Of a DNA stretch of 64,000 nt, positions 3,695 to 48,756 are shown in pieces; positions within the stretch are counted from its first letter, which is position 1, and each line of letters opens with the position of its first letter. The translations under genes were made by a program, and so were the position numbers. The stretch is taken from NCBI GenBank assembly GCA_944385705.1, contig CALWYF010000001.1:3118-67117 (forward strand), given 5' to 3'. This DNA is from an uncultured Oscillospiraceae bacterium. GTDB lineage: Bacteria > Bacillota > Clostridia > Oscillospirales > Oscillospiraceae. The notes beneath the pieces are model-generated. The model had not been told where the DNA came from. It worked only from the letters and a program-made list of their open reading frames with translations, and did not search any database.

Positions 3695-3697
3695 ACC

Positions 3698-4849
3698 GTG
3701 TTTCAGCTGAGCGAGAGACAAAGAGAACTGCGCAATGAACTGCGCAGCTTTGTGGACAAAAACATAATACCCCAGGCGGGGAGCCTGGAACTCAGCGGAG
3801 GCTTTCCCAGAGGCCTGTTTTCCCAGCTGGGAAAGGAGGGTTATCTGGACCTGTGCTTCTGGCACCTGAGACCGGGGGCCAAGTACGGCAGCACGGAGAG
3901 CGCCATAATCCTGGAGGAGATAGCCAGGGGCCTGCCCTCCCTGGCCCTCAGCATGAGCCCCCACATCCAGTGCATGAACCTGATATCCCTCTACGGCAGC
4001 CAGGAGCTGAAGGAGAAGCTGCTGCCGGCGGCGCTGAAAGGGGAGACGCTCTTTGCCTTTGCCCTCTCCGAGGCCAGCGGGGGCTCCGAGGCCCTGGCCA
4101 TAGACACCACTGCCAGCTTCGTGGGAGACGGCTGGGTGCTCAACGGGGAGAAGTGCTGGATAACCAATGCGGGGGCGGCCGACGGCTATATCGTGGCGGC
4201 CAAGAGCGCCAGCTCCAGCCGTTACAGGGACGTTAGCCTGTTTTATGTGGATGCCGGGACTCCGGGTCTGGAGGATCTGGTGAGGGTGCCACTTACGGGG
4301 ATGAACAACTCTCCCACCGGGACCATCCGGCTGAACAACTGCAAGGTGTCCGCTCAGTGCCTGGTGGGCAGGGAGAATGAGGCCTATTCACTTATGAAGG
4401 TGCTGCTGAACGAGGGCCGGCTGGATATGGCAGCCCTGGCGGTGGGCATGGCCCAGTGCTCCATGGAGTGCAGCATCAGCCATACCAGCACCAGCAGCCG
4501 CTATGGGAGAAACCTGGCTTCCTATCAAGGAGTGTCCTTCCAGGTGGCCAGAATGTACGAGAAGATATTCATGGCCCGCAACGCCATGTACACCGTTGCG
4601 GACATGTTCCAGAACCAGCAGCGGGCCACCATGGAGGTGGCAGCTCTGAAGCTTTTCGCCTCGGAGATGTGCGTGGAGGTCTGCCGCTCGGCGGCCCAGC
4701 TCCACGGCGCCGGGGGCTTCAGCCGTTTCTCCCCGGTGGAGCGGAACCTTCGGGACTGCCAGATGCTCACCATTGCCGAGGGCAGCTCCGAGGTGTGCCA
4801 GATAGTCATATCCGGCAAGCTGTACCACGCCCAGCCCGGGGAATACTGA
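3698..4849 (+). CDS. acyl-CoA dehydrogenase family protein (paralogue of bcd)
   Basis: 383 aa, GTG start, ACAD-like throughout, C-terminal LTIAEGSSEV motif retains the catalytic Glu position. Confidence 0.85.
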   Translation: MFQLSERQRELRNELRSFVDKNIIPQAGSLELSGGFPRGLFSQLGKEGYLDLCFWHLRPGAKYGSTESAIILEEIARGLPSLALSMSPHIQCMNLISLYGSQELKEKLLPAALKGETLFAFALSEASGGSEALAIDTTASFVGDGWVLNGEKCWITNAGAADGYIVAAKSASSSRYRDVSLFYVDAGTPGLEDLVRVPLTGMNNSPTGTIRLNNCKVSAQCLVGRENEAYSLMKVLLNEGRLDMAALAVGMAQCSMECSISHTSTSSRYGRNLASYQGVSFQVARMYEKIFMARNAMYTVADMFQNQQRATMEVAALKLFASEMCVEVCRSAAQLHGAGGFSRFSPVERNLRDCQMLTIAEGSSEVCQIVISGKLYHAQPGEY

Positions 4850-4956
4850 AGAGAAGAGCAAAAAAAGCCGGAAAAAATCGAAAAGGAAAGATTTTACTTG
4901 AAAAAGACGGGAATACAGGCTAAGATGATATAAACGATGAAAAGGAGGCTTTGCCC

Positions 4957-5202
4957 ATGAAATGTCCCCGCTGCGGCAGTGAAATGACTGTTGACACCCA
5001 CCGTAAGTACAATATAGAGATGTGCTATAACTGCGGCTATACCGAGGGGCGCAGTTCCGGCGACGGACAGCAGGCCGGAGCTACGAACTTCCAGCACATG
5101 AAAGAACTGAACATGAACGAACTGGCCGTGTTCCTCTCCGAGGGAGTAGGCGTGGATAAGGACAAGGTGTTCTCCTGGCTTTGCGCCGCCCACGAGGAAT
5201 AA
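4957..5202 (+). CDS. small zinc-ribbon protein
   Basis: ATG 4957 lies 8 nt after AGGAGG. CPRCG...CYNCG double CxxC. Confidence 0.6.
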   Translation: MKCPRCGSEMTVDTHRKYNIEMCYNCGYTEGRSSGDGQQAGATNFQHMKELNMNELAVFLSEGVGVDKDKVFSWLCAAHEE

Positions 5203-5244
5203 AGGACATTCGGGAAAGAGTGCGGCAGGACCTGTATAAAAGAT

Positions 5245-5283
5245 AAAACCGAGGCTCCCATTTTATGGGAGCCTCGGTTTTGC
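5245..5283. terminator. bidirectional rho-independent terminator
   Basis: 12-bp perfect stem ccgaggctccca/tgggagcctcgg (5249-5260 / 5266-5277), flanked by an A-run and a T-run, between convergent genes. Confidence 0.8.
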
Positions 5284-5315
5284 TTTTGACCTGAATATGT
5301 TGAAAGCTCTGGCCC

Positions 5316-6506
5316 TCAGTCCAGCAGAGCCTTGAAGGCGGGGAGGCTGCGCTCTATCATGTCCTTGGCCACGCAGTAGCTGAGCCGCAGATAGCCGGGA
5401 CAGCCGAAGCCGTCGGCAGGCACCAGCAGCAAATTCTGCTGAAGCTTGGCTTTTTCGGAGAAGGCCATGGAATCTCCGCCGGGGGCCTTCACCAGCAGGT
5501 AGAAGGCGCCCTGTGGCTTTACGCACTCATAGCCCATGGCCGTGAGACTGCCGTAGAGCAGACGGCGGTTCTCATCATAGGCGGCCAGGTCCGGCCTCTC
5601 AGCGGCACAGCGGCCTATCACCAGCTGCATCAGGGATGGGGGGCACACATGGCCCATTATCCTGGCGGCCCCGGAAATGGCCGTGTAAAGCTCCCGGGAG
5701 TCCCGGGCAAAGCCGGGCACATAGACATAGCCTATACGCTCACCCGGCAGGGAGAGGGACTTGGAGTAAGAATAGCAGACGACGGTGTTTTTATATATGC
5801 AGGGGATGAAGGGCACTTCCACTCCGTCATAGACCAGTTCCCGATAGGGCTCATCGGCGATGATGTATATGGGATGGCCGTACTCTGCTCCCTTACGCTC
5901 CAGCAGAGCGGCCAGGGCCTCCAGACTCTCCCGGGAGTATACAACGCCGGAGGGGTTGTTGGGGGAGTTTACTATGACGGCCTGGGTGCGGGGGCTGAGA
6001 AGGGCTTCAAGCTTGTCAAGGGCTATCTGGAAAGAGGAGGTGTCCGGGGGAACGATAACAACCTTGGCGCCGTTTTGCTCCACAAAGGGCACATACTCCG
6101 GGAAGAAGGGGGCCAGGAGCATTATCTCACTGTCCTCTCCCACAGCCAGAGCCTTTATGACCGAGATAAGAGCCGGGGCGGCTCCGCAGGTAAAGAACAG
6201 CTCCTCGGCCTTTACCGGCAGTCCGAAGCGGCGCTCCAGGTCCTCTGCCACGGCTTTGCGGGCATCTGTCAGCCCGGCGGCCATGGTGTAGCCGTGGACC
6301 TGGATGGAGTCCATGCTGCTTATTATATCCATTATAGATGCGTTCACAGCGGCCGGAGCGGGGATGCTGGGGTTACCCAGGGAGTAGTCATAGACCTTGT
6401 CAGGACCCACCAGAGCCGCCTGCTGAAGGCCGTAGGCAAAGAGGCTGCGGATGACGGAGGGCTCGGCTCCAAGCTTATAGCAATTCTCGTTTATCATGTT
6501 TATCAC
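5316..6506 (-). CDS. PLP-dependent class I/II aminotransferase
   Basis: 396 aa; SYSKSLSLPGERIGY PLP-lysine motif and aspartate-aminotransferase-like layout. Confidence 0.88.
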   Translation of the reverse strand: MINMINENCYKLGAEPSVIRSLFAYGLQQAALVGPDKVYDYSLGNPSIPAPAAVNASIMDIISSMDSIQVHGYTMAAGLTDARKAVAEDLERRFGLPVKAEELFFTCGAAPALISVIKALAVGEDSEIMLLAPFFPEYVPFVEQNGAKVVIVPPDTSSFQIALDKLEALLSPRTQAVIVNSPNNPSGVVYSRESLEALAALLERKGAEYGHPIYIIADEPYRELVYDGVEVPFIPCIYKNTVVCYSYSKSLSLPGERIGYVYVPGFARDSRELYTAISGAARIMGHVCPPSLMQLVIGRCAAERPDLAAYDENRRLLYGSLTAMGYECVKPQGAFYLLVKAPGGDSMAFSEKAKLQQNLLLVPADGFGCPGYLRLSYCVAKDMIERSLPAFKALLD

Positions 6507-6609
6507 TCCCGTTTATAGATTCATGTGGGAATTATACTACCAAGCCCAAGATTTGAAAAGACGGGCATAAAAAATTCCGGGTATCAATACCCGGAATTTT
6601 TTATGCCTT

Positions 6610-8496
6610 TCACACCGCAGCAGGAGCGGGATGACCGGTATAGAGCTGATAGTACTTGCCCTGCTTTTCCATGAGCTGCTCGTGGGTGCCACGCTCTATG
6701 ATGCGTCCCTGCTCCATGACCATGATGCAGTCGGCGTTGCGCACGGTGGAGAGCCGGTGGGCGATGACGAAGGTGGTGCGCCCGGCCATCAGGGCGTCCA
6801 TGCCGTCCTGGACCAGCTTCTCGGTACGGGTGTCTATGGAGGAGGTGGCCTCGTCCAGTATCAGGGCGGGAGGGTCTGCCACGGCGGCCCGGGCTATGGA
6901 CAGCAGCTGCCTCTGGCCCTGGCTCAGATTGGCTCCGTCCCCGGTGAGCATGGTATCGTAGCCGTCGGGCAGACGGCGGATAAAGCCGTCGGCATTGGCC
7001 AGCTTTGCGGCGGCTATACACTCCTCATCGGTGGCGTCCAGCCGCCCATAGCGGATATTGTCCATGACGGTGCCGGTGAAGAGGTGGGTATCCTGAAGCA
7101 CCATGCCCAGAGAGCGGCGCAGGTCGGACTTCTTTATCTTGTTGATGTTGATGCCGTCGTAACGTATCTTGCCGTCGGCTATATCGTAGAAGCGGTTTAT
7201 CAGGTTGGTGATGGTGGTCTTGCCGGCGCCGGTGGCCCCGACAAAGGCTATCTTCTGTCCGGGCTTTGCCCAAAGACTTATGTTGTGCAGCACTGTCTTC
7301 CCCGGCTCGTAGCCGAAGTCCACGTCATCCATGACCACGGCGCCTTCCAGCTTCGTGTAGGTGACGCTGCCGTCGGCCTTGTGGGGGTGCCGCCAGGCCC
7401 AGAGCTTGGTGCGCTCCTGAGTCTCGGTAATATTGCCGTTCTCGTCTTCCCGGGCCCGGACCAGTTCCACGTAGCCCTGGTCCTCCTCCGGCTGCTGGTC
7501 CATCAGGTCAAAGACCCTATGGGCTCCGGCGGCGGCGGTGACAACAAAGTTCACCTGCATGCTCACCTGGGAGATGGGCTGGGTGAAGCTCTTATTCAGC
7601 CCCACAAAGGCGATGACAGTGCCCAGGCTCACTCCGGCCAGACCGTTGATGGCCAGAACGGCTCCCATCACTGCAACCAGGGCGTAGCTGAGCCAGCCGA
7701 TGTTGGCATTGACAGGCATGAGCATGTTGGCATAGCTGTTGGCCTTGTCGGCACTGATGCGCAGCTCCTCGTTCACCTTGTGAAAGCCGTCCATGGCGGC
7801 GCTTTCATGGCAGAAGACCTTTACCACCTTCTGACCGTCCAGCATCTCCTCGATGAAGCCGTCCACGGCGCCAAGGGCCTGCTGCTGCTTGATATAATAC
7901 TTGCCTGAAAGCCGGGAGAAGTTCTTGGTGACGGTAAGCATTACCAGGGCTGTGAGCAGAGAGATGAAGGTGAGCAGGGGATTTAGCAGCAGCATGGTCA
8001 CAAAGGTGGCAACCATGGTGATGCAGGAGTTTATCACCTGGGGTATGCTCTGGCTCAGCAGCTGGCGCAGAGTGTCCACGTCGTTGGTGTATACGGACAT
8101 GATGTCCCCGTGGGAGTGGGTGTCGAAATATTTGATGGGCAGCTGCTCCATTTTGTGAAACAGCTCGTCACGAAGATGGCACATGGTGCCCTGACTCACG
8201 TTTACCATGATACGGTTGTAGGCAAAGGCGGAGACCGTGCCCAGGGCCATCAAAGCGGCCAGCTGCAATATGGCGGACTTGAGGCCGCTGAAGTCCCGGG
8301 AACCGCTTTGCACCATGGGGGTGATATAGTCATCCACCAGGGTCTGGGGGAAGGTGGCCGCCAGGACCGTGGCCACTGCCGACAGCAGTATGAACAGCAC
8401 TACCAGAATAAAGGGAAGACTGTAGTAGTGCAGCATGTATCTCATTACCCGGCTCAGCACCTTGCCGGCGCCGGGCATTGCTTTTTTCTTGTTCAT
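6610..8496 (-). CDS. ABC transporter permease/ATP-binding protein (exporter half)
   Basis: N-terminal 6-TM domain; Walker A GATGAGKTT, signature LSQGQRQ, Walker B ILDEATS. Start set to MNKKK (ATG 8494-8496) after AGGAGG. Confidence 0.9.
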   Translation of the reverse strand: MNKKKAMPGAGKVLSRVMRYMLHYYSLPFILVVLFILLSAVATVLAATFPQTLVDDYITPMVQSGSRDFSGLKSAILQLAALMALGTVSAFAYNRIMVNVSQGTMCHLRDELFHKMEQLPIKYFDTHSHGDIMSVYTNDVDTLRQLLSQSIPQVINSCITMVATFVTMLLLNPLLTFISLLTALVMLTVTKNFSRLSGKYYIKQQQALGAVDGFIEEMLDGQKVVKVFCHESAAMDGFHKVNEELRISADKANSYANMLMPVNANIGWLSYALVAVMGAVLAINGLAGVSLGTVIAFVGLNKSFTQPISQVSMQVNFVVTAAAGAHRVFDLMDQQPEEDQGYVELVRAREDENGNITETQERTKLWAWRHPHKADGSVTYTKLEGAVVMDDVDFGYEPGKTVLHNISLWAKPGQKIAFVGATGAGKTTITNLINRFYDIADGKIRYDGININKIKKSDLRRSLGMVLQDTHLFTGTVMDNIRYGRLDATDEECIAAAKLANADGFIRRLPDGYDTMLTGDGANLSQGQRQLLSIARAAVADPPALILDEATSSIDTRTEKLVQDGMDALMAGRTTFVIAHRLSTVRNADCIMVMEQGRIIERGTHEQLMEKQGKYYQLYTGHPAPAAV

Positions 8497-13615: not shown

Positions 13616-13661
13616 TGGTGCTCCAGCGGGGATTCGAACCCCGGACACCCTGCTTAAAAGG
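13616..13661. repeat. attL: 46-bp duplicate of the tRNA-Lys 3' end
   Basis: tggtgctccagcggggattcgaaccccggacaccctgcttaaaagg is identical to 48757-48802. Identity stops at both edges (13615 g vs 48756 c; 13662 a vs 48803 c). Confidence 0.95.
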
Positions 13662-13669
13662 GATAATTT

Positions 13670-14905
13670 TTAATTCTCAAAATTGCCTGTATTATCAACG
13701 CTTTCAACCGATTTTTCCACGTTGGAACACCCCGGACTATTACCCCCAAAGGCCAGAGCTACGGCCTGCACAGTGTCCTCCGGCTTGTTGGCCATAAGGT
13801 GGGTATATATATTGAGCGTGAGCTGCACAGTGGCGTGACCGGCCAGATATTGGACAGTTTTTATATCAGCCCCGGCCATGATTAGCTCGGTGATATAGGT
13901 GTGCCGGAGTTGATGAGGGGTGACATGGAAGTCGATAGATACCGTCACTTTGTGTTTTGGTATCTTATCTCCCAGCTTGTACCCGTCCCGCACCGTGCGG
14001 ATCCGGATGGCATCCCACATCTTGCGGAAGCCGGTAGCGGATACCGGCCCGCCGGTCTGATTGCAGACTACATAGGGACTGCCGGAGATGCGCTTGTCTT
14101 TGCTCTGCTGTCTTGTGGCTTGGAGCTCCTTCAGGCAGTCCAGCAGAGGCGGAGGCAGCGGTATCTTCCTCCGGGAGGCGCTGCTCTTCAGCTCCTCATT
14201 CAGCACAGGGCGGTTTTCCCCCCCCCAGTGCAGAGCCCGCTTGACCTCCAGATAGGGGACTTGCTCTGTCATGTGTACGCAGTCCCACTGCAGTCCCAGG
14301 GCCTCCTCCCGGCGCAGCCCGGCATAGAGGCACAGACTGACAAAGGGCTCCACTGAGCAGCCCTTGACGGCGGCCAGTAGGGCAGCCTGCTGAACCTTAT
14401 CCAGCGGCAGCTTCTCCTGGGACGGCTTGCCTCCGGCCTTCAGGTCTCGGCAGGGAGATCTCTTTATCAAATCATTGTCTTCAGCCGCTGCGAAGATCCT
14501 TTTGAGGGTGGTCACTATCTTTTGCTGTGAGGATTTTGAGAGCCCTGCAGCGGCAAGCATTACCGCTTTAATATCGTCCGGCTTAATATCAGATATCGCC
14601 TTGCCGCCGATAATGGGACATATGTGGTTGTTGATGGCGTTTTTATAGTCCTCCCGGCGCTTGGCGCTTAGACCGGCAGTATTGAGCTTGTACCACTGGG
14701 CGGCATATTCATAGACATAGGGCTTTTCCGGGGTACCGGACGATGCAAGCTCCGCTTCCCGGAGCCTGACTTTTTCCCGGAGCTCAGCCTTTGTAGCGGC
14801 CCACACATCAATGCTCCACTTCCCGGTGAGGGGATTTTTGAGCCTTTTCCGGTATAGCTGCCGGGCTTCGTCAAAGTAAAACTCCGGGGCATTTTTCTTT
14901 GGCAT
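13670..14905 (-). CDS. int: tyrosine-type site-specific integrase
   Basis: 411 aa; C-terminal HQLRHTYITELIMAGADIKTVQYLAGHATVQLTLNIYTH (R, HxxR, Y catalytic pattern); 8 nt from attL. Confidence 0.93.
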   Translation of the reverse strand: MPKKNAPEFYFDEARQLYRKRLKNPLTGKWSIDVWAATKAELREKVRLREAELASSGTPEKPYVYEYAAQWYKLNTAGLSAKRREDYKNAINNHICPIIGGKAISDIKPDDIKAVMLAAAGLSKSSQQKIVTTLKRIFAAAEDNDLIKRSPCRDLKAGGKPSQEKLPLDKVQQAALLAAVKGCSVEPFVSLCLYAGLRREEALGLQWDCVHMTEQVPYLEVKRALHWGGENRPVLNEELKSSASRRKIPLPPPLLDCLKELQATRQQSKDKRISGSPYVVCNQTGGPVSATGFRKMWDAIRIRTVRDGYKLGDKIPKHKVTVSIDFHVTPHQLRHTYITELIMAGADIKTVQYLAGHATVQLTLNIYTHLMANKPEDTVQAVALAFGGNSPGCSNVEKSVESVDNTGNFEN

Positions 14906-14947: not shown

Positions 14948-15000
14948 TTACGTAAAATTACGTAAAAACTATTGACATACGTAATAATACGTGTTATACT
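14948..15000 (+). promoter_or_regulatory. hicAB promoter overlapped by four TACGT-core repeats (putative operator)
   Basis: TTGACA (14972-77), 17 nt, TATACT (14995-15000). TTACGTAA at 14948 and 14958; ATACGT at 14977 and 14987. Confidence 0.6.
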
Positions 15001-15058: not shown

Positions 15059-15217
15059 ATGTTAAGGAAAGCGGGCTGCACGGTATATAAGGAGGGTGCA
15101 AATCACACATTATGGTACAGCCCAATAACCGGTAAGACTTTCCCAGTAGGACGGCACAAAACGGAAGATGTAAAAACCGGTACTTTGAAATCAATCATGA
15201 AGGATGCGGGGCTCTAA
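15059..15217 (+). CDS. hicA: HicA-like mRNA interferase toxin (short; N-terminus unresolved)
   Basis: MLRKAGCTVYKEGANHTLWYSPITGKTFPVGRHKTEDVKTGTLKSIMKDAGL. Upstream in-frame codons read ADIKYSELEK with no canonical start before a TGA stop at 15026-28. Not in the ORF track (<60 aa). Confidence 0.7.
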   Translation: MLRKAGCTVYKEGANHTLWYSPITGKTFPVGRHKTEDVKTGTLKSIMKDAGL

Positions 15218-15253
15218 AGCCCCCATCCAAATAAAAATAGGAGGCGTTTGTTA

Positions 15254-15649
15254 ATGGCAAAATACATCTATCCTGCGGTATTTACGCTTGAGGATGAAGG
15301 CGGATATTCTATAAACTTCCCTGATATTGAGAGCTGCTATACGTCTGCGGAGACGTTGGAGGAAGGCTTGAAAATGGCTGAAGACGTGCTCTGCTTGATG
15401 CTTTACGAAATGGAGGAGAACGGCAAGGCAATTCCGAAAGCGTCGGGAATAAAGGATCTTGAGCTTGCGGAGAACGAGTTTGCCACCCTCGTGGCCTGCG
15501 ACACTTTGGAATACCGCAAATTTTATAACAGTAAGGCTGTAAAGAAAACCTTGAGTATACCTGCTTGGCTTAACACCATGGCAGAAAAAGAGGATATAAA
15601 TTTCTCCGCTGTTCTTCAAAAGGCATTGAAAGCCGAATTGAATATCTGA
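15254..15649 (+). CDS. hicB: HicB-family antitoxin with C-terminal DNA-binding tail
   Basis: MAKYIYPAVFTLEDEGGYSINFPDIESCYTSAETLEEGLKMAEDVL is a typical HicB N-domain; ATG 15254 follows AGGAGG. Confidence 0.85.
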   Translation: MAKYIYPAVFTLEDEGGYSINFPDIESCYTSAETLEEGLKMAEDVLCLMLYEMEENGKAIPKASGIKDLELAENEFATLVACDTLEYRKFYNSKAVKKTLSIPAWLNTMAEKEDINFSAVLQKALKAELNI

Positions 15650-15702: not shown

Positions 15703-15719
15703 GTGTCCAATTTGGACAC
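15703..15719. repeat. 17-bp palindrome copy 1 (GTGTCCAATTTGGACAC)
   Basis: Perfect 8+1+8 palindrome. Intergenic, 1 nt from the stop codon of the 168-aa gene. Confidence 0.9.
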
Positions 15720-15720
15720 G

Positions 15721-16227
15721 TCAATCTATGTTCCGATTAACCCCATAAAAAACTCTTCCGCTGTGAAGCACTTTCCTGTAAAAACAACCTATAGCAAAAA
15801 ATTTATCCGTGTGAATGCAGGTCTTAGCGTTGCTGCACTCCATATACCGGCTGCAACATGAGAATTCTTTGGGAAGTCTATCCAGTATGTACTGACAAGA
15901 AAGCCTAATATTATCCAAATACTCTGGTATTTCCTTCACGGAATTAATGTATACTTTGACAAAATCCTTGAAACCATCCGCTCCTATCTCATCAATATTG
16001 GGGAATTCAAGGAATGTCACCTTTTTTCCACAGTATATCCGCACAATTATATTTCCGGAAAAGCTAACAGAATATATTTCTGCAGAACTTTTACTTGTCA
16101 ATTTTTCAAACTTGGCAGTCATCCCGGAAAGCCCGTTTTCAGATAGTAGATCAGCTATGGAATTAAGAACGGTTGTTTTTACTTTTTCTATTGGTGTGGG
16201 TTCGAAAAAAGAAGTTTGTTCGTTCAT
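15721..16227 (-). CDS. hypothetical protein with Cys-rich C-terminus (distal gene of the cassette)
   Basis: 168 aa; C-terminal EFSCCSRYMECSNAKTCIHTDKFFAIGCFYRK; 4-bp overlap with the upstream gene; AT-rich. Confidence 0.6.
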   Translation of the reverse strand: MNEQTSFFEPTPIEKVKTTVLNSIADLLSENGLSGMTAKFEKLTSKSSAEIYSVSFSGNIIVRIYCGKKVTFLEFPNIDEIGADGFKDFVKVYINSVKEIPEYLDNIRLSCQYILDRLPKEFSCCSRYMECSNAKTCIHTDKFFAIGCFYRKVLHSGRVFYGVNRNID

Positions 16228-17453
16228 ACTGATACCTCACAATTTATAAGCTGGAGAAACTGATCTTCATTTAAAAAAATGATATTAGCTTTACCTGATT
16301 TATTCAAATCATAAGCTTTTTCTTCCTTTGTGCTCATGCCATCCTCTCCGACCAATGCCTTGTCCTGTTTCCCAACAACAAGATAATCCGTCTTTTTTGA
16401 AACAGAGGACTTAACAATGGCTCCAGAATTTACTGCAATCTGCATTGCCTCAGCCCTGTCCATATTCAGCTCCCCGGTGAAAACTATATTTTTGCCAAAC
16501 AATGGATTGCCCTCATCAAAAGCGGTAACTGTTGGGCTGATATCCTTGGGATTTACATTATTAAAGTGGGATACAACTGCTGGAACTTTACGGCTGCTGC
16601 CTCTCTTCCTGTAGGAGGCCTCATTACTTAGCTCATTGTTCTCACTGTCATCATCGGAAGTGTTTTTGATAAGCTGGTCTTCCATAAGCTTTGATGTGCA
16701 CTTCAGATATAAAGCTGCACAGGTATATACATCGGCCAAAGCCCTATGCGATGGCTGTTCAGGCAATTCAAGCCAAACCTTCAAGTTCTCCAGCTTGTGA
16801 TTTTCAAATTCAGGAAAAGCCTTCCGGGACAACTTCAAAGTATCAATGACCGAATAATCAAAGTTATATCCGTATGTATAGAAAGCATCACAGAGAAACG
16901 ATTTATCGAATGGAGCATTATGTGCTACTATCGGCAGTTTCTCAATAAAGGAAATAAATTCGGGCAGCACTTCTTTTATCTCGGGCGCCGTAGCCACGGC
17001 CTCATTATTTATCCCGGTAAGAGCTGTTACTTCCTCAGGTATATGCTTCCTGGGGTTGACCAAGGTTTCAAAAGTGCCTATCTCATTTCCATGGACATAC
17101 TTTACGGCAGCGATTTCTATTATGCTGTCTTTGTTGTGGTTTCGTCCGGTTGTTTCCAGATCTAGAACAACATATGATTCAGCCAATGCACTGGAAGAAA
17201 AACCAGACTGCATATCGGCCAGATAGTCGGTGTTAATACAATGCAGTTCATCACCAAGCTGGATAACGGATATGAAATCCTTTATATAGCCCTTTAATGT
17301 GCAGATTACAGGTGCATTAGTGAAACCACCAGAATACATTAAAGACTTTGCAAATTTTGAGCTAGGCGCAGCGAGGTTGTGTTCTACCATAAACCGCAAC
17401 TTTTCTGAATCATTTGAAAATGCTGTCCAATTATCTTTCGGAGGAATCATCAT
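16224..17453 (-). CDS. DEDDh (DnaQ/epsilon-like) 3'-5' exonuclease fused to a C-terminal BRCT domain, with an unassigned ~95-aa N-terminal domain
   Basis: ExoI VVLDLETTG, ExoII VAHNAPFDKSFL, ExoIII HRALADVYT. C-terminus FGKNIVFTGELNMDRAEAMQIAVNSGAIVKSSVSKKTDYLVVG is BRCT-like. Confidence 0.8.
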   Translation of the reverse strand: MMIPPKDNWTAFSNDSEKLRFMVEHNLAAPSSKFAKSLMYSGGFTNAPVICTLKGYIKDFISVIQLGDELHCINTDYLADMQSGFSSSALAESYVVLDLETTGRNHNKDSIIEIAAVKYVHGNEIGTFETLVNPRKHIPEEVTALTGINNEAVATAPEIKEVLPEFISFIEKLPIVAHNAPFDKSFLCDAFYTYGYNFDYSVIDTLKLSRKAFPEFENHKLENLKVWLELPEQPSHRALADVYTCAALYLKCTSKLMEDQLIKNTSDDDSENNELSNEASYRKRGSSRKVPAVVSHFNNVNPKDISPTVTAFDEGNPLFGKNIVFTGELNMDRAEAMQIAVNSGAIVKSSVSKKTDYLVVGKQDKALVGEDGMSTKEEKAYDLNKSGKANIIFLNEDQFLQLINCEVSV

Positions 17454-17558: not shown

Positions 17559-17575
17559 GTGCCCAAATTGGGCAC
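17559..17575. repeat. 17-bp palindrome copy 2 (variant GTGCCCAAATTGGGCAC)
   Basis: Perfect palindrome with a C/G variant in both half-sites; lies between the cI stop (17577) and the cassette start. Confidence 0.8.
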
Positions 17576-17576: not shown

Positions 17577-18521
17577 TTATTTTTTTATTTTTCTCCGGAG
17601 CTCGACCACGACTCCGGCAATTGACACAGGTAAAGACTCTATTTCCTCCGGGCTGAACGTCCTGGGAGGATACGATTGGTTGCGGGGTACGATGGTTAGG
17701 CTGTGATCACTATTAAGACGCACCTGCTTGAGTGTTGCCTCATATCCATTTACATACACAACACAGTCATCGCCGGAATTACAGGTAGGCTGCTTACGGA
17801 CAATTACTGTATCACCTGGCAGATAGTCCGGCCACATACTGTCTCCTTTGACCTGGAGGGCAAAGTATTCCCTTCCGCCATCAACCATACTGTCTGGGAT
17901 GTCTTCCCAGTCAACTATGTCTTCGACTGCTTCTAATGGAATGCCCGCAGGAACAGTGCCGAGTACAGGTATAGAAATTGCTTGACTTTTCTTTGGATTT
18001 GCATACTCATAAGTTGAAAACTCGTATAGCTTATTGTTTATTGCATCGCCTAATCCCATAACTTTTGAATTGTGCAATTTAACTGCTGAATCAAAAATGG
18101 GAGTAAATTCTACTTCAGCAGTTGATTGATCAACAATTACAACGGATTTCACCGCATTTGCAAACCATTGGATTAAGAATAATTCGTTTTTTTCATAAAA
18201 AAATGCAATATCAAGGTTGGCTATAAGAAATTTATCATCTTTAATTGGGTCACTGTAATCTGGAGGTATTTTTTTTCGTATTGCGCAGAAAACTGCCTCA
18301 GCATTCGACATTATCTCTTCCCAGTTTTCAAAGACGCCTGCACCGACCAAGAAATCAACTGGCACATGAAGAACTTTTGATAGCCTAACAAGCGTATCAT
18401 TATCCGGGCAAGATGGGGATGTTTCCCACATGGCAACAGTTGTCCTTGCTACATTTAATGCCTTTGCCAATTGCGCTTGTGTTAATTTGTTGAGTTTTCT
18501 AGCCGCTTTAATTGGATTCAT
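17577..18521 (-). CDS. cI/LexA-like prophage repressor (XRE HTH + inserted domain + S24 peptidase)
   Basis: N-terminal LTQAQLAKALNVARTTVAMWE HTH. C-terminal GDSMWPDY (Ser) and EATLKQV (Lys) S24 autocleavage motifs. About 110 aa of unassigned sequence lie between them. Confidence 0.85.
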   Translation of the reverse strand: MNPIKAARKLNKLTQAQLAKALNVARTTVAMWETSPSCPDNDTLVRLSKVLHVPVDFLVGAGVFENWEEIMSNAEAVFCAIRKKIPPDYSDPIKDDKFLIANLDIAFFYEKNELFLIQWFANAVKSVVIVDQSTAEVEFTPIFDSAVKLHNSKVMGLGDAINNKLYEFSTYEYANPKKSQAISIPVLGTVPAGIPLEAVEDIVDWEDIPDSMVDGGREYFALQVKGDSMWPDYLPGDTVIVRKQPTCNSGDDCVVYVNGYEATLKQVRLNSDHSLTIVPRNQSYPPRTFSPEEIESLPVSIAGVVVELRRKIKK

Positions 18522-18538
18522 AAAAACACCTCAATGTA

Positions 18539-18567
18539 ATTCTATGTCAAAAATAACGACATTGCAA
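18539..18567 (-). promoter_or_regulatory. repressor-maintenance-type promoter for cI
   Basis: Minus strand reads TTGCAA, 17 nt, TAGAAT, followed by GAGGTG RBS and ATG 18521. Confidence 0.6.
18546..18560. promoter_or_regulatory. operator-like site O1 (GTCAAAAATAACGAC)
   Basis: Shares GTCAAAA...GAC with O2 and O3; lies in the spacer of the cI promoter. Confidence 0.55.
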
Positions 18568-18588
18568 GAAGACTAAACGAAAAAGTCT

Positions 18589-18603
18589 GTCAAAACTATT
18601 GAC
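18589..18603. promoter_or_regulatory. operator-like site O2 (GTCAAAACTATTGAC)
   Basis: 15-bp imperfect palindrome overlapping the -35 of the rightward promoter. Confidence 0.6.
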
Positions 18604-18627
18604 AAAAACCCCGCTAGAATATATAAT
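18599..18627 (+). promoter_or_regulatory. early rightward (PR-like) promoter
   Basis: TTGACA (18599-604), 17 nt, TATAAT (18622-27). Confidence 0.7.
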
Positions 18628-18637
18628 TATATCAAAC

Positions 18638-18652
18638 GTCAAAAGTTTTGAC
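18638..18652. promoter_or_regulatory. operator-like site O3 (GTCAAAAGTTTTGAC)
   Basis: Perfect 7+1+7 palindrome just downstream of the PR -10. Confidence 0.65.
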
Positions 18653-18706
18653 ATAAATACAAAAATTTAGGCTGCTGCAAATTACCATATAGGGGAGGTG
18701 AAAGAA

Positions 18707-18916
18707 ATGGTGATGAGAATTCGTGAGTTGCGCCAATCGTTAGGGATGAAGCAGCAAGAGCTTGCTGACGTGATGGGAGTATCACGTACTACTGCAACCC
18801 AGTGGGAAAGTGAGGTAGCTCTACCTCGTACCCGACAGCTCCCGGATCTGGCCAGAGCTCTGAATTGCTCCATCGATGAACTTTTTGCTCAGCCGGAGCC
18901 GGTCTGTCCCATGTAA
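18707..18916 (+). CDS. Cro-like XRE-family HTH regulator
   Basis: MVMRIRELRQSLGMKQQELADVMGVSRTTATQWE; ATG 18707 after AGGGGAGG; divergent from cI. Confidence 0.8.
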   Translation: MVMRIRELRQSLGMKQQELADVMGVSRTTATQWESEVALPRTRQLPDLARALNCSIDELFAQPEPVCPM

Positions 18917-21938: not shown

Positions 21939-22238
21939 ATGCGAATAGGCGAGTTTTACACCTTTGTCCCGGCAGGATTTACCGGGGAGAAGCACGGCAC
22001 CGTCAAGCAGGCACAGGCTCTCCCTCACAAGGTGACCGGCACCATCGTGGGGATCAACCGGGTACACCGATTTTGTCGGGTGCGCTTTAATGTGAACGGC
22101 GTTACATTGCACGAATGTTTCAAAATAAAGAGTCTGGAGGACCGATATGAGAACAACTGTAATTTTGAATTTAAAGGGCGGCGTTGCAAAGACCGCCACG
22201 GCCGTCAATGTGGCGGCGATCCTGGCCAGCGACTATAA
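21939..22238 (+). CDS. hypothetical protein (3' end overlaps parA by 92 nt)
   Basis: ATG after AGGAGGA. The last ~30 aa are an Arg/Gly-rich out-of-frame read of parA, so the true C-terminus is uncertain. Confidence 0.45.
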   Translation: MRIGEFYTFVPAGFTGEKHGTVKQAQALPHKVTGTIVGINRVHRFCRVRFNVNGVTLHECFKIKSLEDRYENNCNFEFKGRRCKDRHGRQCGGDPGQRL

Positions 22239-22917
22239 GCAGCGGGTACTGCTGATAGATGCTGATAGCCAGTGCAATACTACAGAATTTTACGGTGGAG
22301 ATCCTGCCAAGGGTAATTTGGCTGAGCTGCTGCGGAGCGGCAGCCAAGAGGACGCAGCGTGGGGCATTCAGAGCACCAGATTCACCGGTGTGGATCTTCT
22401 GGCCGGGGACGAGAGCCTTATGGACCTTGACCTCACTAAAGTGGAGCTGCAGGACGTGCGGGCCACGGTACTTAGGGACATGGTGCAGTCGCTGGATAAG
22501 ATGAGCCTTTACGATTGGGTGTTGGTGGATTGCCCACCAGCATTCAATGCGGCCTCGGCGGCCGCTCTCATTGCCGCCGATGAGGTAATCATCCCAATCA
22601 AGCTGGACGCCTTTTCCCTGCGGGGAATGGCCAATTTGATGCGGCAGATTGCCAACATGAGACAAATAAATCCCAAGCTGAGGCTGGGAGGGCTCCTGCC
22701 CACGATGTGGTACAGAAGCGAAAATATACAAAGGGCAGAAGAGACCCTGCGGGCCTCCGGCCTGCCGGTATACCCGCATATCCGCCGCACCAATAAAGTT
22801 GATGACATGACCTTTGACCAGCAGCCGCTGCTGGTCTCCAGCCCCAAGAGCGCCGCCGGTAGGGACTACCGCACATTTGTCCGTGCGCTCATGGAGGGAG
22901 GCGCAGTCAATGGCTAA
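22147..22917 (+). CDS. parA: ParA/Soj-family partition ATPase
   Basis: Deviant Walker A LNLKGGVAKTATAVN, then LLIDADSQCN and VLVDCPP. Confidence 0.9.
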   Translation: MRTTVILNLKGGVAKTATAVNVAAILASDYKQRVLLIDADSQCNTTEFYGGDPAKGNLAELLRSGSQEDAAWGIQSTRFTGVDLLAGDESLMDLDLTKVELQDVRATVLRDMVQSLDKMSLYDWVLVDCPPAFNAASAAALIAADEVIIPIKLDAFSLRGMANLMRQIANMRQINPKLRLGGLLPTMWYRSENIQRAEETLRASGLPVYPHIRRTNKVDDMTFDQQPLLVSSPKSAAGRDYRTFVRALMEGGAVNG

Positions 22918-24430
22918 GACCGGCTTTGACCTCGCCTCCATTCTGGGGGATGTGTCCAAATTGGACACCGGCCTGCAGCCCGATGGACGGGAGCAGATCG
23001 AGTACATAGACCTCAGTCTCATAGACCCAGACCCCAACAATTTTTACGAGATGACCGATATTGAGGAGCTGGCTGCCAATATTGAGCTGCTGGGCCTGCA
23101 GCAGCCCTTGAGGGTCCGGCCCAATTCAGACAAGCCGGGGAGATTGATTATTGTCTCCGGGCATCGCCGCAGGGCAGCTCTGGAACTGCTTGTGGGCGAA
23201 GGTAAGTCGCAGTTTGCCCAGGCACCGTGCATCAGGGAGGCAGGCGATCAGTCCGCTGCCCTCCAGGAGCTCCGGCTTATATACGCCAACAGCGACACCA
23301 GGAAGCTCACTTCGCCCGAACTGTCTAAGCAGGCGGAGCGTGTGGAGGCTCTTCTTTACCAGCTCAAGGAGGAAGGCATGGACTTCCCCGGCCGGATGAG
23401 GGATCATGTGGCTGAGGCCTGCAAGGTGAGCAAGTCCAAGCTGGCCCGGCTGAAAGTCATCCGTGAGAAGCTGGACAAGCCATTTTACCAGCTGTATGAG
23501 AAGGGCACAATTGCCGAGAGCGTGGCCTATGCTCTTGCCCAGCAGCCTTTGGAGATACAGAGGGCAGTGCACGATTACAAGTGCGTTGGTAAAAACGGTG
23601 CTAAGTACCTGCGGGAATGGGAGGTAGACAATGTAGCTGAGAACTATAAGAAGATTACTGAGCGAACGTGCAAATTTGGTGGTGCTTGCAGCCATGGTGC
23701 GGCATTGCTCGGGAAAATATATGACGGCTCGTATAGCTATAAGCCGTGTGAGCATGTCAAGTGCTGCAGTAAGTGTGATAAGCTGGCAAGCTGTAAATCC
23801 GCTTGTCCAAAGCTGAAGGATAAAATCCAGAAACTCAAGGCGGATAAAAAGGCGGCGGCCCAGCAGGAGAAGCTGGCCAAGGAAGAAAAAGAGCGTCCTG
23901 ATATTGAGCAGATCACCAGACTCTGGGCTCGCTTTGGCGAGGCCAGAGCGGCAGCGGGGAAGAGTGTGAGGCAGATAATAGAAGCTGCTGATATGTACTA
24001 CACTAAATCTGATGATGAAAAGTATAAAGCTCTTGAAAGTGGTGGCAGACAAGTCACGACATCTACAGGGCTGCCTTATAGCTATGGCTTTAGTTTGACC
24101 GATGTCCGGAGGCTCATATCTATTGCGGACTGCCTCGGCTGTAGTCTGGACTATCTCTTCTGCCGCACCGATGAGCCAAGAGCCAAGTGGGAGGAGCACG
24201 ATGCTTCAGTTCCTGTCACGGCTACGGCATGGCATACTGGTACTCCGCCCATGAGCGGCGAGTACATTGTGAAGCTTGCATTACAAGATGAGCAGGATGA
24301 ATTTATTAAGGCTTTCCTCGACTTTGATCGTTACAATAGTGAGTGGAGCTACGAGTATGGTGAGCCGTTAGACACATCTTTGGCTAAAGTGATAGGCTGG
24401 ATACAGCTCCCCGAGGAGGATGAAGAATGA
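22910..24430 (+). CDS. parB: ParB N-terminal-domain protein with long Cys-rich / HTH-like / DUF551-like C-terminal extension
   Basis: Start ATG 22910 overlaps the parA stop. LQQPLRVRPNSDKPGRLIIVSGHRRRAAL is the ParB box. Then CKFGGACSHG...CEHVKCCSKCDKLASCKSACPK, and C-terminal IGWIQLPEEDEE. Confidence 0.8.
   Translation: MAKTGFDLASILGDVSKLDTGLQPDGREQIEYIDLSLIDPDPNNFYEMTDIEELAANIELLGLQQPLRVRPNSDKPGRLIIVSGHRRRAALELLVGEGKSQFAQAPCIREAGDQSAALQELRLIYANSDTRKLTSPELSKQAERVEALLYQLKEEGMDFPGRMRDHVAEACKVSKSKLARLKVIREKLDKPFYQLYEKGTIAESVAYALAQQPLEIQRAVHDYKCVGKNGAKYLREWEVDNVAENYKKITERTCKFGGACSHGAALLGKIYDGSYSYKPCEHVKCCSKCDKLASCKSACPKLKDKIQKLKADKKAAAQQEKLAKEEKERPDIEQITRLWARFGEARAAAGKSVRQIIEAADMYYTKSDDEKYKALESGGRQVTTSTGLPYSYGFSLTDVRRLISIADCLGCSLDYLFCRTDEPRAKWEEHDASVPVTATAWHTGTPPMSGEYIVKLALQDEQDEFIKAFLDFDRYNSEWSYEYGEPLDTSLAKVIGWIQLPEEDEE
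22952..22968. repeat. 17-bp palindrome copy 3 (GTGTCCAAATTGGACAC)
   Basis: Perfect copy 43 nt into parB (encodes VSKLDT). Confidence 0.9.
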
Positions 24431-24630: not shown

Positions 24631-24840
24631 ATGCCAGGGACACGATACGTCATAAATTTAAGAGCTAAGCGGGAGCCGGACGGGCTGGCTCCCGCCATCA
24701 GATGCAGCCGGTTCTGGTGCCAGCGCATGGGAGACAATCGATGCTGCGCTGTGTGCTCCAGGCTGGAGCAGTGCATTGATCCCTGCCTCAATAGCCCGGC
24801 CCGCTGCGGCCTGGTGTCCAAATTGGACACCGAAGAATAG
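24631..24840 (+). CDS. hypothetical Cys-rich small protein
   Basis: 69 aa, 8 Cys; RBS GAGGAGGG. Confidence 0.5.
   Translation: MPGTRYVINLRAKREPDGLAPAIRCSRFWCQRMGDNRCCAVCSRLEQCIDPCLNSPARCGLVSKLDTEE
24814..24830. repeat. 17-bp palindrome copy 4 (GTGTCCAAATTGGACAC)
   Basis: Perfect copy at the 3' end of ORF 24631..24840 (again encodes VSKLDT). Confidence 0.9.
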
Positions 24841-27584: not shown

Positions 27585-29099
27585 ATGGAGATAACCGTCC
27601 GGGCTCTCAATGAGCTCAGGCCTTACGAGCACAATCCGAAGACCCATCCTAAGAGCCAGGTGGACAATATCGCCAGAAGTATACAAGATTTTGGCTTCCG
27701 CCAGCCCTTGGTCATAGACGGGGACGGCAACATAGTCTGCGGCCACGGCCGCTATCTGGCGGCAGCGCAGCTGGGCATGACGGAGCTGCCTTGCGTGATG
27801 GCCGACGACCTTACACCGGCGCAGATCCGGGCTTATCGAATCCTGGACAACAAGATTGCAGAGAGCCCTTGGAGCTATGAGACCCTGGAGCTTGAGCTCC
27901 CGCAGATAGACCTCTCTGGGTATGACCTGCGGTGGCATGCGAATCTGGAGCTGCCTCAGACTCTGGAGGAAGCCTCGGTGCCTGAGAGCGCACCGGGCAG
28001 GTGCAGCCCTGGGGATATTTTCGCCCTGGGACAGCATCGCCTTATGTGCGGAGACTCTACAAGGCCGGAGGATGTCCAACGGCTTATGGGCGAGGAAAGA
28101 GCAGAACTGCTGCTCACGGACCCACCCTATAATGCAGACTACGAGGGAGTGGCCGGCAAGCTGCTCAATGACTCAATGCCCAGCGAGAGATTTGCGGCTT
28201 TCCTGGAAGCAGCCTTTTCAAACGCAAAAACCGTGATGCAGCCGGGTGCAGCCTTTTTTATCTGGTACTCGTCTATGGCTGCCTATGAATTTCATGGAGC
28301 CTGCCGTAAGGCCGGGCTTAAAGCCCACCAGGTGCTGGTGTGGGTCAAGCAGTCCATGATCCTCTCCCGGCAGGATTTTAACTGGCAGCATGAGCTTTGT
28401 CTTTACGGCAACGCCGATAAAGACCCGGACTGCCTCGGAGGAGAGGACCACTGCCTCTACGGCTGGAAGGAGGGCGCAGCGCATACATGGTGCAAAAATG
28501 ACAAGCAGTCCACCGTGCTCCGATTTGACCGCCCGGTCAAAAGTACGCTGCACCCTACTATGAAGCCTTTGGACATGATCGGGTATCAAATATCCTGCGT
28601 CACCCATCCGGGACAGCTTGTCCTTGACCTGTTCGGCGGCAGCGGCACCACGCTCATGGCCTGCGAAAAGCTGGGCAGATGTTGCCGGATGATGGAGCTG
28701 AGCCCTAGATTTTGCGACGTGATTATAAAACGCTGGGAGGAGATGACCGGAGACCAGGCAACCAGGATTGAGTATGTGCATTGGCCTGATTTCCCGGACT
28801 TTCTGCCGGAGCAGCTCAAGGGCCGCTATCAGAGCCTGGCTCCGGTGCTGGCGGAAATGGGCACACTGCGAAGTGTGGATGCCGATGCTCTGGGCCGGTA
28901 CCTCCTCCTGAGCTGGGAATACAGTGCGACCATCCAGCAAGTGGTGAATGCTATCCAGAATGGGGACGCAGCGGAGAGCGAGCGCTGGATAGCAATACAG
29001 GACCGGCTGCATGGACAGATCATCCAGCTGGCCGAGCAATTCGGACTTACCCCGGAGTCCAGACAGAAGCGTGGGCTGATATTACCGAAGGACAGGTGA
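27585..29099 (+). CDS. ParB-like nuclease domain + DNA methyltransferase (DPPY) + C-terminal P27-type terminase-small-subunit-like domain
   Basis: N-terminus LRPYEHNPKTHP...GHGRYLAAAQLG. MTase motif IV LLLTDPPYN and motif I FGGSGTTLMACEKLGR. C-terminal ~110 aa ends in AEQFGLTPESRQKRGL, typical of P27 TerS. Confidence 0.8.
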   Translation: MEITVRALNELRPYEHNPKTHPKSQVDNIARSIQDFGFRQPLVIDGDGNIVCGHGRYLAAAQLGMTELPCVMADDLTPAQIRAYRILDNKIAESPWSYETLELELPQIDLSGYDLRWHANLELPQTLEEASVPESAPGRCSPGDIFALGQHRLMCGDSTRPEDVQRLMGEERAELLLTDPPYNADYEGVAGKLLNDSMPSERFAAFLEAAFSNAKTVMQPGAAFFIWYSSMAAYEFHGACRKAGLKAHQVLVWVKQSMILSRQDFNWQHELCLYGNADKDPDCLGGEDHCLYGWKEGAAHTWCKNDKQSTVLRFDRPVKSTLHPTMKPLDMIGYQISCVTHPGQLVLDLFGGSGTTLMACEKLGRCCRMMELSPRFCDVIIKRWEEMTGDQATRIEYVHWPDFPDFLPEQLKGRYQSLAPVLAEMGTLRSVDADALGRYLLLSWEYSATIQQVVNAIQNGDAAESERWIAIQDRLHGQIIQLAEQFGLTPESRQKRGLILPKDR

Positions 29100-42755: not shown

Positions 42756-42759
42756 TTAC

Positions 42760-48604: not shown

Positions 48605-48621
48605 TTTTACCTGTAATTTAG

Positions 48622-48674: not shown

Positions 48675-48718
48675 AATCTGAAATTTGCTGGGCAAATATG
48701 GAGGCAACTGAATAAATG

Positions 48719-48754: not shown

Positions 48755-48756
48755 GC

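Follow-up and report, generated by a model that had tools for sequence, protein, structure and literature searches.

The locus and its two-gene cassette

The window, that is, the whole stretch of 64,000 nt to which all coordinates below refer, comes from a metagenome-assembled genome (MAG) of a member of the Oscillospiraceae and contains a prophage in which two overlapping genes on the minus strand directly follow the gene for a cI-like repressor. Gene 1 encodes a DnaQ-type 3'-5' exonuclease joined to a BRCT domain (exo-BRCT), and gene 2 encodes a smaller partner with a Cys-rich C-terminus. A sequence-only reading of this DNA took these two genes, hereafter the cassette, for a nuclease-based defence pair that is expressed in the lysogen. 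The features involved, the two genes being open reading frame (ORF) calls, are as follows.

17577..18521, minus strand: cI-like repressor (Pfam HTH_3 + Peptidase_S24), first gene of the putative operon
16224..17453, minus strand: gene 1, 409 aa, N-domain + DEDDh 3'-5' exonuclease + BRCT
17172..17453, minus strand: gene 1 N-terminal domain (N-domain; aa 1-94), no assigned fold, conserved in a subfamily
16707..17171, minus strand: DEDDh (DnaQ-like) exonuclease domain of gene 1 (aa 95-249), Pfam RNase_T
16245..16508, minus strand: BRCT domain of gene 1 (aa 316-403), LigA-type, Pfam BRCT
15721..16227, minus strand: gene 2, 168-aa partner protein
15874..16227, minus strand: N-terminal half of gene 2 (aa 1-118), variable alpha-beta5-alpha domain in the AlphaFold2 (AF2) model
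15724..15873, minus strand: C-terminal Cys-rich domain of gene 2 (aa 119-168), CC-x5-CS-x4-C-x10-C-x-Y...G..F.G.N.N

The two ORFs, their coordinates and their strand are as originally described, with a 4-bp ATGA stop/start overlap at the junction and a GAGG ribosome-binding site ahead of gene 2. The placement of the cassette directly downstream of cI, in the same orientation and before hicAB and the integrase gene, likewise agrees with the neighbours identified by Pfam; a 123-bp spacer separates cI from gene 1. The low GC content that had been attributed to this segment is real (37% in gene 2 and 41% in gene 1, compared to 54% in the remaining prophage and 57% in the host), but the AT-rich block, at ~14.8-18.8 kb, also takes in cI (42%) and hicAB (44-45%) and hence is not specific to the cassette. 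The cassette is far beyond chance: both genes have large families of homologs and are subject to purifying selection, the ratios of nonsynonymous to synonymous substitution rates (dN/dS) in a comparison with a 95%-identical copy being 0.19 and 0.13.

Domain architecture of the two proteins

The central part of gene 1 matches RNase_T (PF00929) over the full length of the model (1-164 of 164; E = 5.6e-37, 128.2 bits against a cutoff of 24). The catalytic motifs recognized in the sequence-only reading, namely DLETTG (Exo I, DxE) at residue 98, HNAPFD (Exo II, D) at 178 and HRALAD (Exo III, Hx4D) at 236, are all intact, and the DEDDh motif columns are at least 90% conserved among 68 homologs, so that the exonuclease is predicted to be active. 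The nearest relatives with solved structures are the exonuclease of PolC (2p1j, 2.7e-24), that of DinG and Cas2-DEDDh. The C-terminal BRCT-like domain of the same reading scores above the Pfam gathering threshold (PF00533, 39.4 bits against 21.3, E = 7.3e-10) and is specifically similar to those of NAD-dependent ligases, as indicated by matches to the phage NAD-ligase PHROGs 2561, 3869 and 3498 and to the LigA BRCT structure 1l7b in the PDB (7.4e-05).

The first ~94 residues of gene 1, which could not be assigned from the sequence, have resisted assignment here as well: searches with the hidden Markov model (HMM) libraries of Pfam, NCBIfam, PHROGs and PADLOC gave no match, and Foldseek comparison of the AF2 model, a small beta-barrel plus helices with a predicted local distance difference test (pLDDT) score of 84, gave no significant hit in the PDB, the best being Tudor/SH3-like folds at E = 0.27. 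The N-domain is restricted to one subfamily, in which M2, W9, F12, L27, C51, G55, I73 and L78 are conserved, and is encoded by a separate ORF in one locus (L096); the conserved W9 and F12, both upstream of the alternative start M22, back the 409-aa start of gene 1. The possibility that the N-domain is a degenerate S24/cI C-terminal domain, raised by a tblastn join in the Moraxella phage Mcat9, was rejected given that a BLASTP comparison with the cI of the window and a Pfam search both came out empty.

Gene 2 has no match in any of the same four HMM libraries, in line with the earlier remark that it lacks a recognizable fold apart from its C-terminal cysteine cluster. The family is nevertheless large: an exhaustive profile search recovered 1,281 cluster representatives, 881 of these at E<1e-10, compared to 28 from a word-indexed search; no homologs of gene 2 or of the N-domain were found among the INPHARED phages or the PLSDB plasmids. 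The N-terminal half of gene 2 is hypervariable and poorly conserved across the family; it is modelled by AF2 with pLDDT of ~80-90 over aa 10-118, and the model shows no significant similarity to PDB structures (best hit YjbR, 2fki, E = 0.15) and matches only uncharacterized phage proteins in BFVD.

The best-conserved part of gene 2 is the cysteine cluster itself, a domain of ~50 residues that occupies the extreme C-terminus in every case and conforms to the consensus [FW][DS]CC[SH]R[YF]xxCS[DN]AxxCxxPxxxxAxxCxY[RK]xxLxxGxxF[YF]GxN[RK]N. Eight residues are invariant, including five cysteines (C124, C125, C131, S132, C137, C148, Y150, G157). A profile built from 52 sequences of this domain matched neither PDB sequences nor Pfam families at E values up to 10, and the word-indexed search with it returned only short unnamed fragments. 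The AF2 model of the domain has pLDDT below 50, as is expected for a metal-dependent fold, and the domain probably binds a metal or an Fe-S cluster.

The two genes as a unit

The linkage of the two genes was assessed in 80 GTDB species-representative loci, mostly from Oscillospiraceae, Lachnospiraceae and other Clostridia, in which the gene 2 domain has these arrangements.

Fused to exonuclease/BRCT: 21 of 80 loci
Adjacent, exonuclease upstream: 38 of 80 loci
Adjacent, exonuclease downstream: 9 of 80 loci
Adjoining ligA only: 3 of 80 loci
Arrangement unassigned: 9 of 80 loci, 4 of them at contig ends

Hence 68 of the 80 loci have the gene 2 domain either within the same protein as exonuclease/BRCT or encoded next to it, and the concern that homologs of the two genes might not co-occur can clearly be set aside. 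Natural fusions, such as P0031 (579 aa) and P0055 (582 aa), account for ~30 of the top 150 family representatives and come in both domain orders; among 31 long proteins containing the gene 2 domain, RNase_T is present in 28 and BRCT in 23. Tandem exo-BRCT paralogues and doubled exonuclease domains also occur in the family. Taken together, these observations support the view, already implied by the original pairing of the two genes, that gene 1 and gene 2 constitute one functional unit, which would consist of two subunits here and of a single polypeptide in many relatives.

The position next to the repressor

In 7 of the 7 lineages that were retrieved by protein identity, the gene order is repressor, module, an optional toxin-antitoxin (TA) pair and integrase. 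The repressor in these lineages is of the S24 type or consists of HTH plus ImmA, the integrase belongs to either the tyrosine or the serine recombinases, the cro/DnaB/ParA side is transcribed divergently, and the TA pair is HicAB in the window and MNT/HEPN in L009. Among the GTDB loci, 24 have a regulator upstream in the same orientation, at a median distance of 80 bp, and 32 have a co-oriented integrase downstream; in many cases, the repressor and the module are 15-80 bp apart. The repressor-proximal lysogeny slot, as the sequence-only reading called it in effect by comparison with lambda, is therefore a recurrent location in many independent prophage lineages. The replication genes of the window (HTH_36 initiator, DnaB, ParA, ParB-like) are located to the right of cro, across the cI/cro switch; the cassette lies on the repressor side of that switch and outside the replication module.

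The signals that bear on expression of the cassette, in addition to divergent promoters and three palindromes that resemble operators at 18539-18654, are the following.

17559..17575, no strand: 17-bp palindrome GTGCCCAAATTGGGCAC, 1 nt past the cI stop codon
15703..15719, no strand: 17-bp palindrome GTGTCCAATTTGGACAC, 1 nt past the gene 2 stop codon
15666..15702, no strand: bidirectional intrinsic terminator common to gene 2 and the convergent hicB, followed by a U-run

Neither a copy of the cI operator nor a strong promoter was found in the 123-bp spacer between cI and gene 1. As RNA, the palindrome that follows cI forms an 8-bp hairpin which, on the minus strand, is not followed by a U-tract, so read-through from cI is plausible. 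The terminator beyond gene 2 folds at -32.9 kcal/mol on the minus strand and at -36.8 kcal/mol on the plus strand, with z-scores of -6.1 and -7.5, respectively. The simplest model compatible with this spacing and terminator pattern is that cI, gene 1 and gene 2 form a single transcript, and such co-transcription, which is the most likely arrangement, would mean that the module is made in the lysogen.

The two gene-end palindromes belong to a set of perfect 17-bp palindromes, GTG[T/C]CCAA[A/T]TTGG[A/G]CAC, with 6 copies in the prophage against 0.22 expected (15703-15719, 17559-17575, 22952-22968, 24814-24830, 30670-30686 and 40764-40780); other copies lie within the ParB-like gene, TerL and an ORF of the tail region. 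Elsewhere, the palindrome occurs in L001 (5349), L005 (6746 and 7913), L017 (4897) and L096 (1904), and it is located just past the stop codon of the repressor in L001, L005 and L115-L117 and past the gene 2 homolog in L017 and L096. The palindrome GTGTCCAAATTGGACAC may serve the phage ParB-like protein (22814-24430) as a parS-like site or else be a conserved gene-end hairpin. Two other interpretations were discarded: these are not cI operators, given that the cI/cro operators are another palindrome, TGTCAAAAnTTTTGACA-like, and the copy at the border of cI and gene 1 is not the junction of immunity exchange, the actual junctions being located within cI (~17918 or 17966) and cro (~18834).

Independence from the repressor allele

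Near-identical prophages allow a direct look at this exchange. The identical gene 2 protein is encoded next to cI alleles of 314, 205 and 202 aa (L111-L117 compared with 17577-18916 of the window), and DNA identity stops inside cI and restarts inside cro at the junctions given above, the N-terminal part of cI being exchanged. Thus, the immunity region has been swapped beside a constant block that includes the C-terminal domain of cI, the cassette, hicAB and int.

What looks like the remnant of a prophage in a related species (L017, 1-6100, host flank 87% identical) has kept nothing but gene 1, gene 2, hicAB and a stub of the integrase gene, which abut a 145-bp piece of the phage right end (window 48615-48759), and has no cI. 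Both genes are intact in this remnant (dN/dS 0.19 and 0.13), and its neighbour encodes a 544-aa Schlafen/AlbA_2 + HATPase_c_4 protein. As in all the near-identical prophages, hicAB and the cassette are kept together. The three cI alleles and the repressor-less remnant support the independence of the cassette from any particular repressor.

Relatives in other phyla and the link with ligA

The slot appears in a simpler form outside Clostridia, in prophages of pneumococci, Moraxella and Campylobacter jejuni and in a streptococcal satellite, where exo-BRCT is present without a gene 2 homolog.

Pneumococcal prophages (IPP43): Cro/CI, RelE/ParE, ImmA, exo-BRCT, int
Streptococcal satellite Javan542: HTH, exo-BRCT, int
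Moraxella phage Mcat9: cI, exo-BRCT
C. jejuni CJIE4: cI (ORF6), ORF7, exo-BRCT (ORF8), ORF9, KAP P-loop NTPase

The recurrence of the order repressor to exo-BRCT across phyla is new here, and the exo-BRCT slot predates the pair of gene 1 and gene 2 and reaches beyond it. Candidate analogues of gene 2, namely the small ORFs that precede exo-BRCT in IPP43 and Javan542 and the ORF7 and ORF9 of CJIE4, were rejected, being an ImmA (M78) protease, an Xre HTH protein and unrelated proteins, all negative with the HMMs for gene 2 and its C-terminal domain. In CJIE4-2 (L109), the block comprises five genes at 2726-6822.

Nucleases of the CJIE elements cause transformation resistance in C. jejuni. For CJIE4, the proteins of ORF6-10 have been detected in uninduced lysogens by proteomics with isobaric tags for relative and absolute quantitation (iTRAQ), and the indel that carries exo-BRCT alternates, in other isolates, with an indel that carries a repressor and the NucA endonuclease (PMC3995785). 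The exo-BRCT and NucA cassettes accordingly look like functional alternatives. According to the abstract of the same study, C. jejuni prophages are known, among other effects, to confer resistance to transformation with DNA (PMC3995785).

A different connection emerges within Clostridia, where the gene for the NAD-dependent ligase, ligA, is immediately upstream in 5 of the 80 loci. Three of these, including an isolate of Allofournierella massiliensis (L048), lack the exonuclease and have a gene 2-like ORF in overlap with the stop codon of ligA, the order in L071 being pcrA-ligA-gene 2-like; in the other two, ligA stands ahead of the full module.

L048, 3851-6495: ligA overlapped by gene 2-like ORF
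L053, 3653-6195: ligA overlapped by gene 2-like ORF
L071, 1220-6144: ligA overlapped by gene 2-like ORF
L038, 2274-6291: ligA ahead of full module
L089, 1-2714: ligA ahead of full module

These arrangements suggest that the Cys-rich domain might be a general partner of enzymes with LigA-type BRCT domains. The pairing of one Cys-rich family with two nick-acting enzymes of this kind supports recognition of nicks or ends, and it also leaves room for a function in repair.

A putative exclusion nuclease and its alternatives

So what could be the function of this cassette? The best reading of its position is that the cassette is a moron-like accessory to the immunity operon of the prophage. The hypothesis that we favor, and to which we assign a probability of about one half, is that the module encodes a two-subunit, 3'-end-directed nuclease that is expressed in the lysogen and excludes incoming DNA. 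Under this hypothesis, the module would have five parts: the N-domain, the DnaQ-type 3'-5' exonuclease, the LigA-type BRCT, the variable alpha/beta domain and the Cys-rich C-terminal domain. The BRCT and the Cys-rich partner would steer the exonuclease to foreign DNA that is entering the cell or replicating, specifically to its nicks or free 3' termini (cos ends that have annealed and await the host LigA being one example), where it would resect the 3' strand, so that the DNA could not be sealed or circularized; the intact host chromosome and the integrated prophage would present no such substrate and would be spared. Both the targeting of nicks or ends and any anti-phage effect are deductions from the features described above. 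The defence flavour of this hypothesis is supported by the match of gene 1 to the candidate defence family PDC-S48, the adjacent TA pairs, the tandem paralogues, the hypervariable N-terminal half of the partner and some neighbouring defence genes. With respect to the original proposal, the unit, the slot and the presence of a homolog in lysogens (that of CJIE4) have stood up, whereas the domain pairing turns out to be partly recognized already, the AT-rich block is wider than supposed, and a repair function linked to ligA had been overlooked; no sign emerged of a split of tasks into sensor and effector.

Several observations weigh against this hypothesis. The Cys-rich domain, for which metal binding and nick targeting are putative roles, is modelled with low confidence, and co-transcription with cI is deduced from the spacing and the absence of a terminator. 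Recognized lysogeny genes are missing from 42 of the 80 loci, and the neighbours there are heterogeneous (129 Pfam families among 141 proteins, as raw counts) and only modestly defence-like, although some of these non-prophage loci adjoin a DRT reverse transcriptase, type III CRISPR, a type III methyltransferase, SoFic, PDC-S04, PDC-S24 or Schlafen/AlbA_2. Retention of the cassette in the L017 remnant may be due to addiction to hicAB or may reflect mis-assembly of the MAG. The capsid protein of CJIE4 was also detected, which implies that some of the cells were derepressed (PMC3995785). The translational coupling of gene 2-like genes to the chromosomal ligA hints at ordinary nick metabolism. 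Finally, the literature searched yields no phenotype for the gene pair, for PDC-S48 or for any exo-BRCT gene of a prophage.

The ligA link leads directly to the most serious competitor, a factor for repair of nicks or 3' ends that acts with or alongside the NAD-dependent ligase, in which case the prophage copy would be a lysogenic-conversion gene for damage tolerance or for tuning of RecA/SOS induction: by turning nicks into gaps or removing 3' ends, the exonuclease could alter the RecA/SOS signal for repressor cleavage. This possibility, which we consider rather unlikely but deserving of attention, draws on the ligA-linked loci, on the BRCT of gene 1 being most similar to that of LigA, on the mycobacterial DnaQ-BRCT protein, reported to be a replication proofreader (bioRxiv 10.1101/2023.10.24.563508), and on the tight link of the module, in four bacterial classes, to RecA-dependent (S24) or ImmA-type regulators, which would befit a role in the induction circuit. 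Such a role is, however, difficult to square with the indifference of the cassette to the adjoining repressor allele, its persistence in the repressor-less L017 and the presence of exo-BRCT in a streptococcal satellite; linkage to ligA is limited to 5 of the 80 loci, and housekeeping repair genes seldom show tandem paralogues, shuffled domains or a hypervariable partner domain.

Two other explanations fare worse. In lambda, an exonuclease is likewise encoded between cI and int, and an exonuclease for the lytic cycle of the phage itself (proofreading, recombination or end processing), made only upon induction like the leftward exo/bet operon of lambda, would agree with the labelling of homologs as a DNA polymerase exonuclease subunit in PHROG 192 and in several GenBank records. 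We regard this as very unlikely, considering that the replication module is across the cI/cro switch from the cassette, that repressor-module gaps of 15-80 bp leave no room for a separately repressed promoter, that the cI-gene 1 spacer lacks a copy of the cI operator, that the module is found outside prophages and in remnants, that the homologous CJIE4 protein is present without induction, and that the scores of gene 1 fall short of the NCBIfam equivalog cutoffs for the epsilon subunit and PolC. An addiction module that stabilizes the end of the prophage, with a nuclease toxin and a Cys-rich inhibitor, is suggested by the two small overlapping genes next to another TA pair, hicAB, and by their joint survival in a degraded prophage; it is most improbable given that roughly one fifth to one quarter of the family are stable fusions, in both orders, which would be unexpected for a toxin and a labile antitoxin, that the partner also pairs with ligA, which is no toxin, and that exo-BRCT alone occupies the same slot in other phyla.

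Returning to the exclusion nuclease, one can speculate, with considerable doubt, that it exemplifies an "anti-ligase" class of immunity-operon defence, in which the LigA-type BRCT and a metal-binding partner would bring the exonuclease to nicks at the annealed ends of phage or plasmid DNA entering the cell and prevent sealing and circularization, the partner would serve as a LigA cofactor in some Clostridia, and the simpler exo-BRCT proteins of Streptococcus, Moraxella and Campylobacter would belong to the same widespread system. If the exclusion hypothesis is correct, a nuclease-based, repressor-linked exclusion module is common in prophages of gut Clostridia, and a function is at hand for the PDC-S48 and PHROG 192 genes that are currently labelled polymerase subunits. 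Pneumococcal, Moraxella and Campylobacter prophages and satellites, which are amenable to genetics, carry the simpler exo-BRCT form, and the cassette appears to be a good, experimentally tractable candidate for a defence function. Whatever the function, the Cys-rich domain is new, strongly conserved, present in more than 1,200 protein clusters and unrepresented in Pfam, NCBIfam and PHROGs. The domain is partnered exclusively with two BRCT-bearing, nick-acting enzymes, exo-BRCT and LigA, which provides a lead into the biology of bacterial BRCT domains.

Other features of the prophage

The prophage, ~35 kb in length, is inserted in the 3' end of a tRNA-Lys gene and bounded by an exact 46-nt repeat. 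Its remaining features on the cassette side and at the attachment sites are these.

15248-15649, plus strand: hicB, Pfam HicB_lk_antitox, convergent with gene 2
15059-15217, plus strand: hicA, Pfam HicA_toxin
15059..15649, plus strand: the hicA/hicB toxin-antitoxin pair as a whole, convergent neighbour of the cassette
13670..14905, minus strand: tyrosine integrase, Pfam Phage_integrase
13616..13661, no strand: attL, 46-nt repeat of the tRNA-Lys 3' end
48757-48802, no strand: attR, exact 46-nt direct repeat, partner of attL
48757-48832: tRNA-Lys

Five clustered tRNA genes (Lys, Gln, His, Arg, Gly), that for tRNA-Lys among them, occupy 48757-49293 on the minus strand. Upstream of hicA, a 28-nt box at 14950-14977, ending in TTGACA, resembles the operator/-35 regions of the cro promoter (18534-18561, 18577-18604), and a near-consensus promoter, TTGACA-17-TATACT with a TG, is located at 14972-15000; hicAB may share its regulation with the immunity switch.

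Elsewhere in the integrated prophage, ParA (AAA_31/CbiA) and a 538-aa ParB_N-like protein are encoded at 22147-24430; the ORF at 26023-26775 matches REP_ORF2-G2P, a family associated with rolling-circle replication, inside what is a tailed prophage; and a 504-aa fusion at 27585-29099 combines ParB_N, N6/N4 DNA methylase and small-terminase (Terminase_4) domains. Collagen-like Gly-X-Y repeats at 43170-44550, with a 9-nt periodicity and many repeat families of 81-159 nt, sit in a GC-rich ORF of 686 aa (42745-44805) that is probably a tail-fibre or host-recognition protein.

Comparison with known systems

The closest match to gene 1 among known systems is the PADLOC candidate PDC-S48 (PDLC05027/05028), which, like gene 1, consists of a DEDDh exonuclease followed by BRCT. 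The alignment with PDLC05027 (E = 1.5e-39) covers profile positions 4-182 (exonuclease) and 334-392 (BRCT) and nothing else. PDC-S48 is a single-gene candidate whose profile begins at the exonuclease, without the N-domain or the Cys-rich partner; gene 1 has the extra 94-aa N-domain and the partner that is fused or adjacent in the 68 loci. The PADLOC search advised at the outset thus matched the core to an unvalidated family, whereas gene 2 and the N-domain had no match among the PADLOC models. We found no paper that names or validates PDC-S48, which is absent from the text of the preprint that is the source of the PDC families and from the Streptococcus thermophilus test set.

Gene 1 is also related to PHROG 192, the label of which, "DNA polymerase exonuclease subunit", is an annotation and not a tested function (E = 1.5e-56; aa 87-404 of gene 1 against positions 101-365 of the 397 in the profile). 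The exo-BRCT genes of this family in prophages (CJIE4 ORF8 "dnaQ", pneumococcal IPP "exonuclease", Mcat9) have the same architecture, 26-33% identity and the same position after the repressor or ImmA; they differ in lacking the N-domain and a gene 2 homolog, in place of which CJIE4 has the downstream KAP P-loop NTPase, and none is functionally characterized. With Pol III epsilon and PolC, gene 1 shares the DEDDh fold and the catalytic motifs, the PolC exonuclease domains being its best solved relatives, but it differs from them in the BRCT and additional domains and in its location in an immunity operon, and no evidence of association with a polymerase was seen. The scores fall well below the NCBIfam cutoffs for TIGR01406 (dnaQ_proteo; 95.5 against 222.7), PRK05711 (86 against 196) and PolC PRK00448 (155.5 against 873), and also for the exo-BRCT model PRK06195 (145.7 against 373). 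The likeness to LigA is limited to the BRCT of gene 1 and to the operons that ligA forms with gene 2-family genes in some Clostridia; gene 1 has no adenylation, OB, Zn-finger or HhH domains, and the predicted 3' resection is the opposite of sealing. Type II TA genes are separate and normally unfused, whereas 21 of the 80 loci contain fusions.

The lambda rexAB genes and BstA are transcribed with, or next to, the prophage repressor. The likeness of the cassette to RexAB, SieB and BstA is one of position and, putatively, of regulation, as accessory genes with or beside a repressor: the co-oriented, repressor-adjacent location is found here and in many lineages, and expression in lysogens has been seen only for the distant CJIE4 homolog. 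There is no similarity in sequence or domains, the cassette proteins having no PADLOC or PHROG match to RexAB, SieB or BstA, and these systems are membrane- or Abi-based as opposed to the presumably nuclease-based cassette. The claim that the domain pairing corresponds to no named system thus stands for gene 2 and the N-domain, which match nothing, and fails for the exo-BRCT core, which corresponds to PDC-S48 and PHROG 192 and is PRK06195-like. Judging by these comparisons, the exo-BRCT core is a candidate that was already known, and what is new is the two-subunit or fused architecture, the N-domain, and the Cys-rich family together with its exclusive association with exo-BRCT and LigA.

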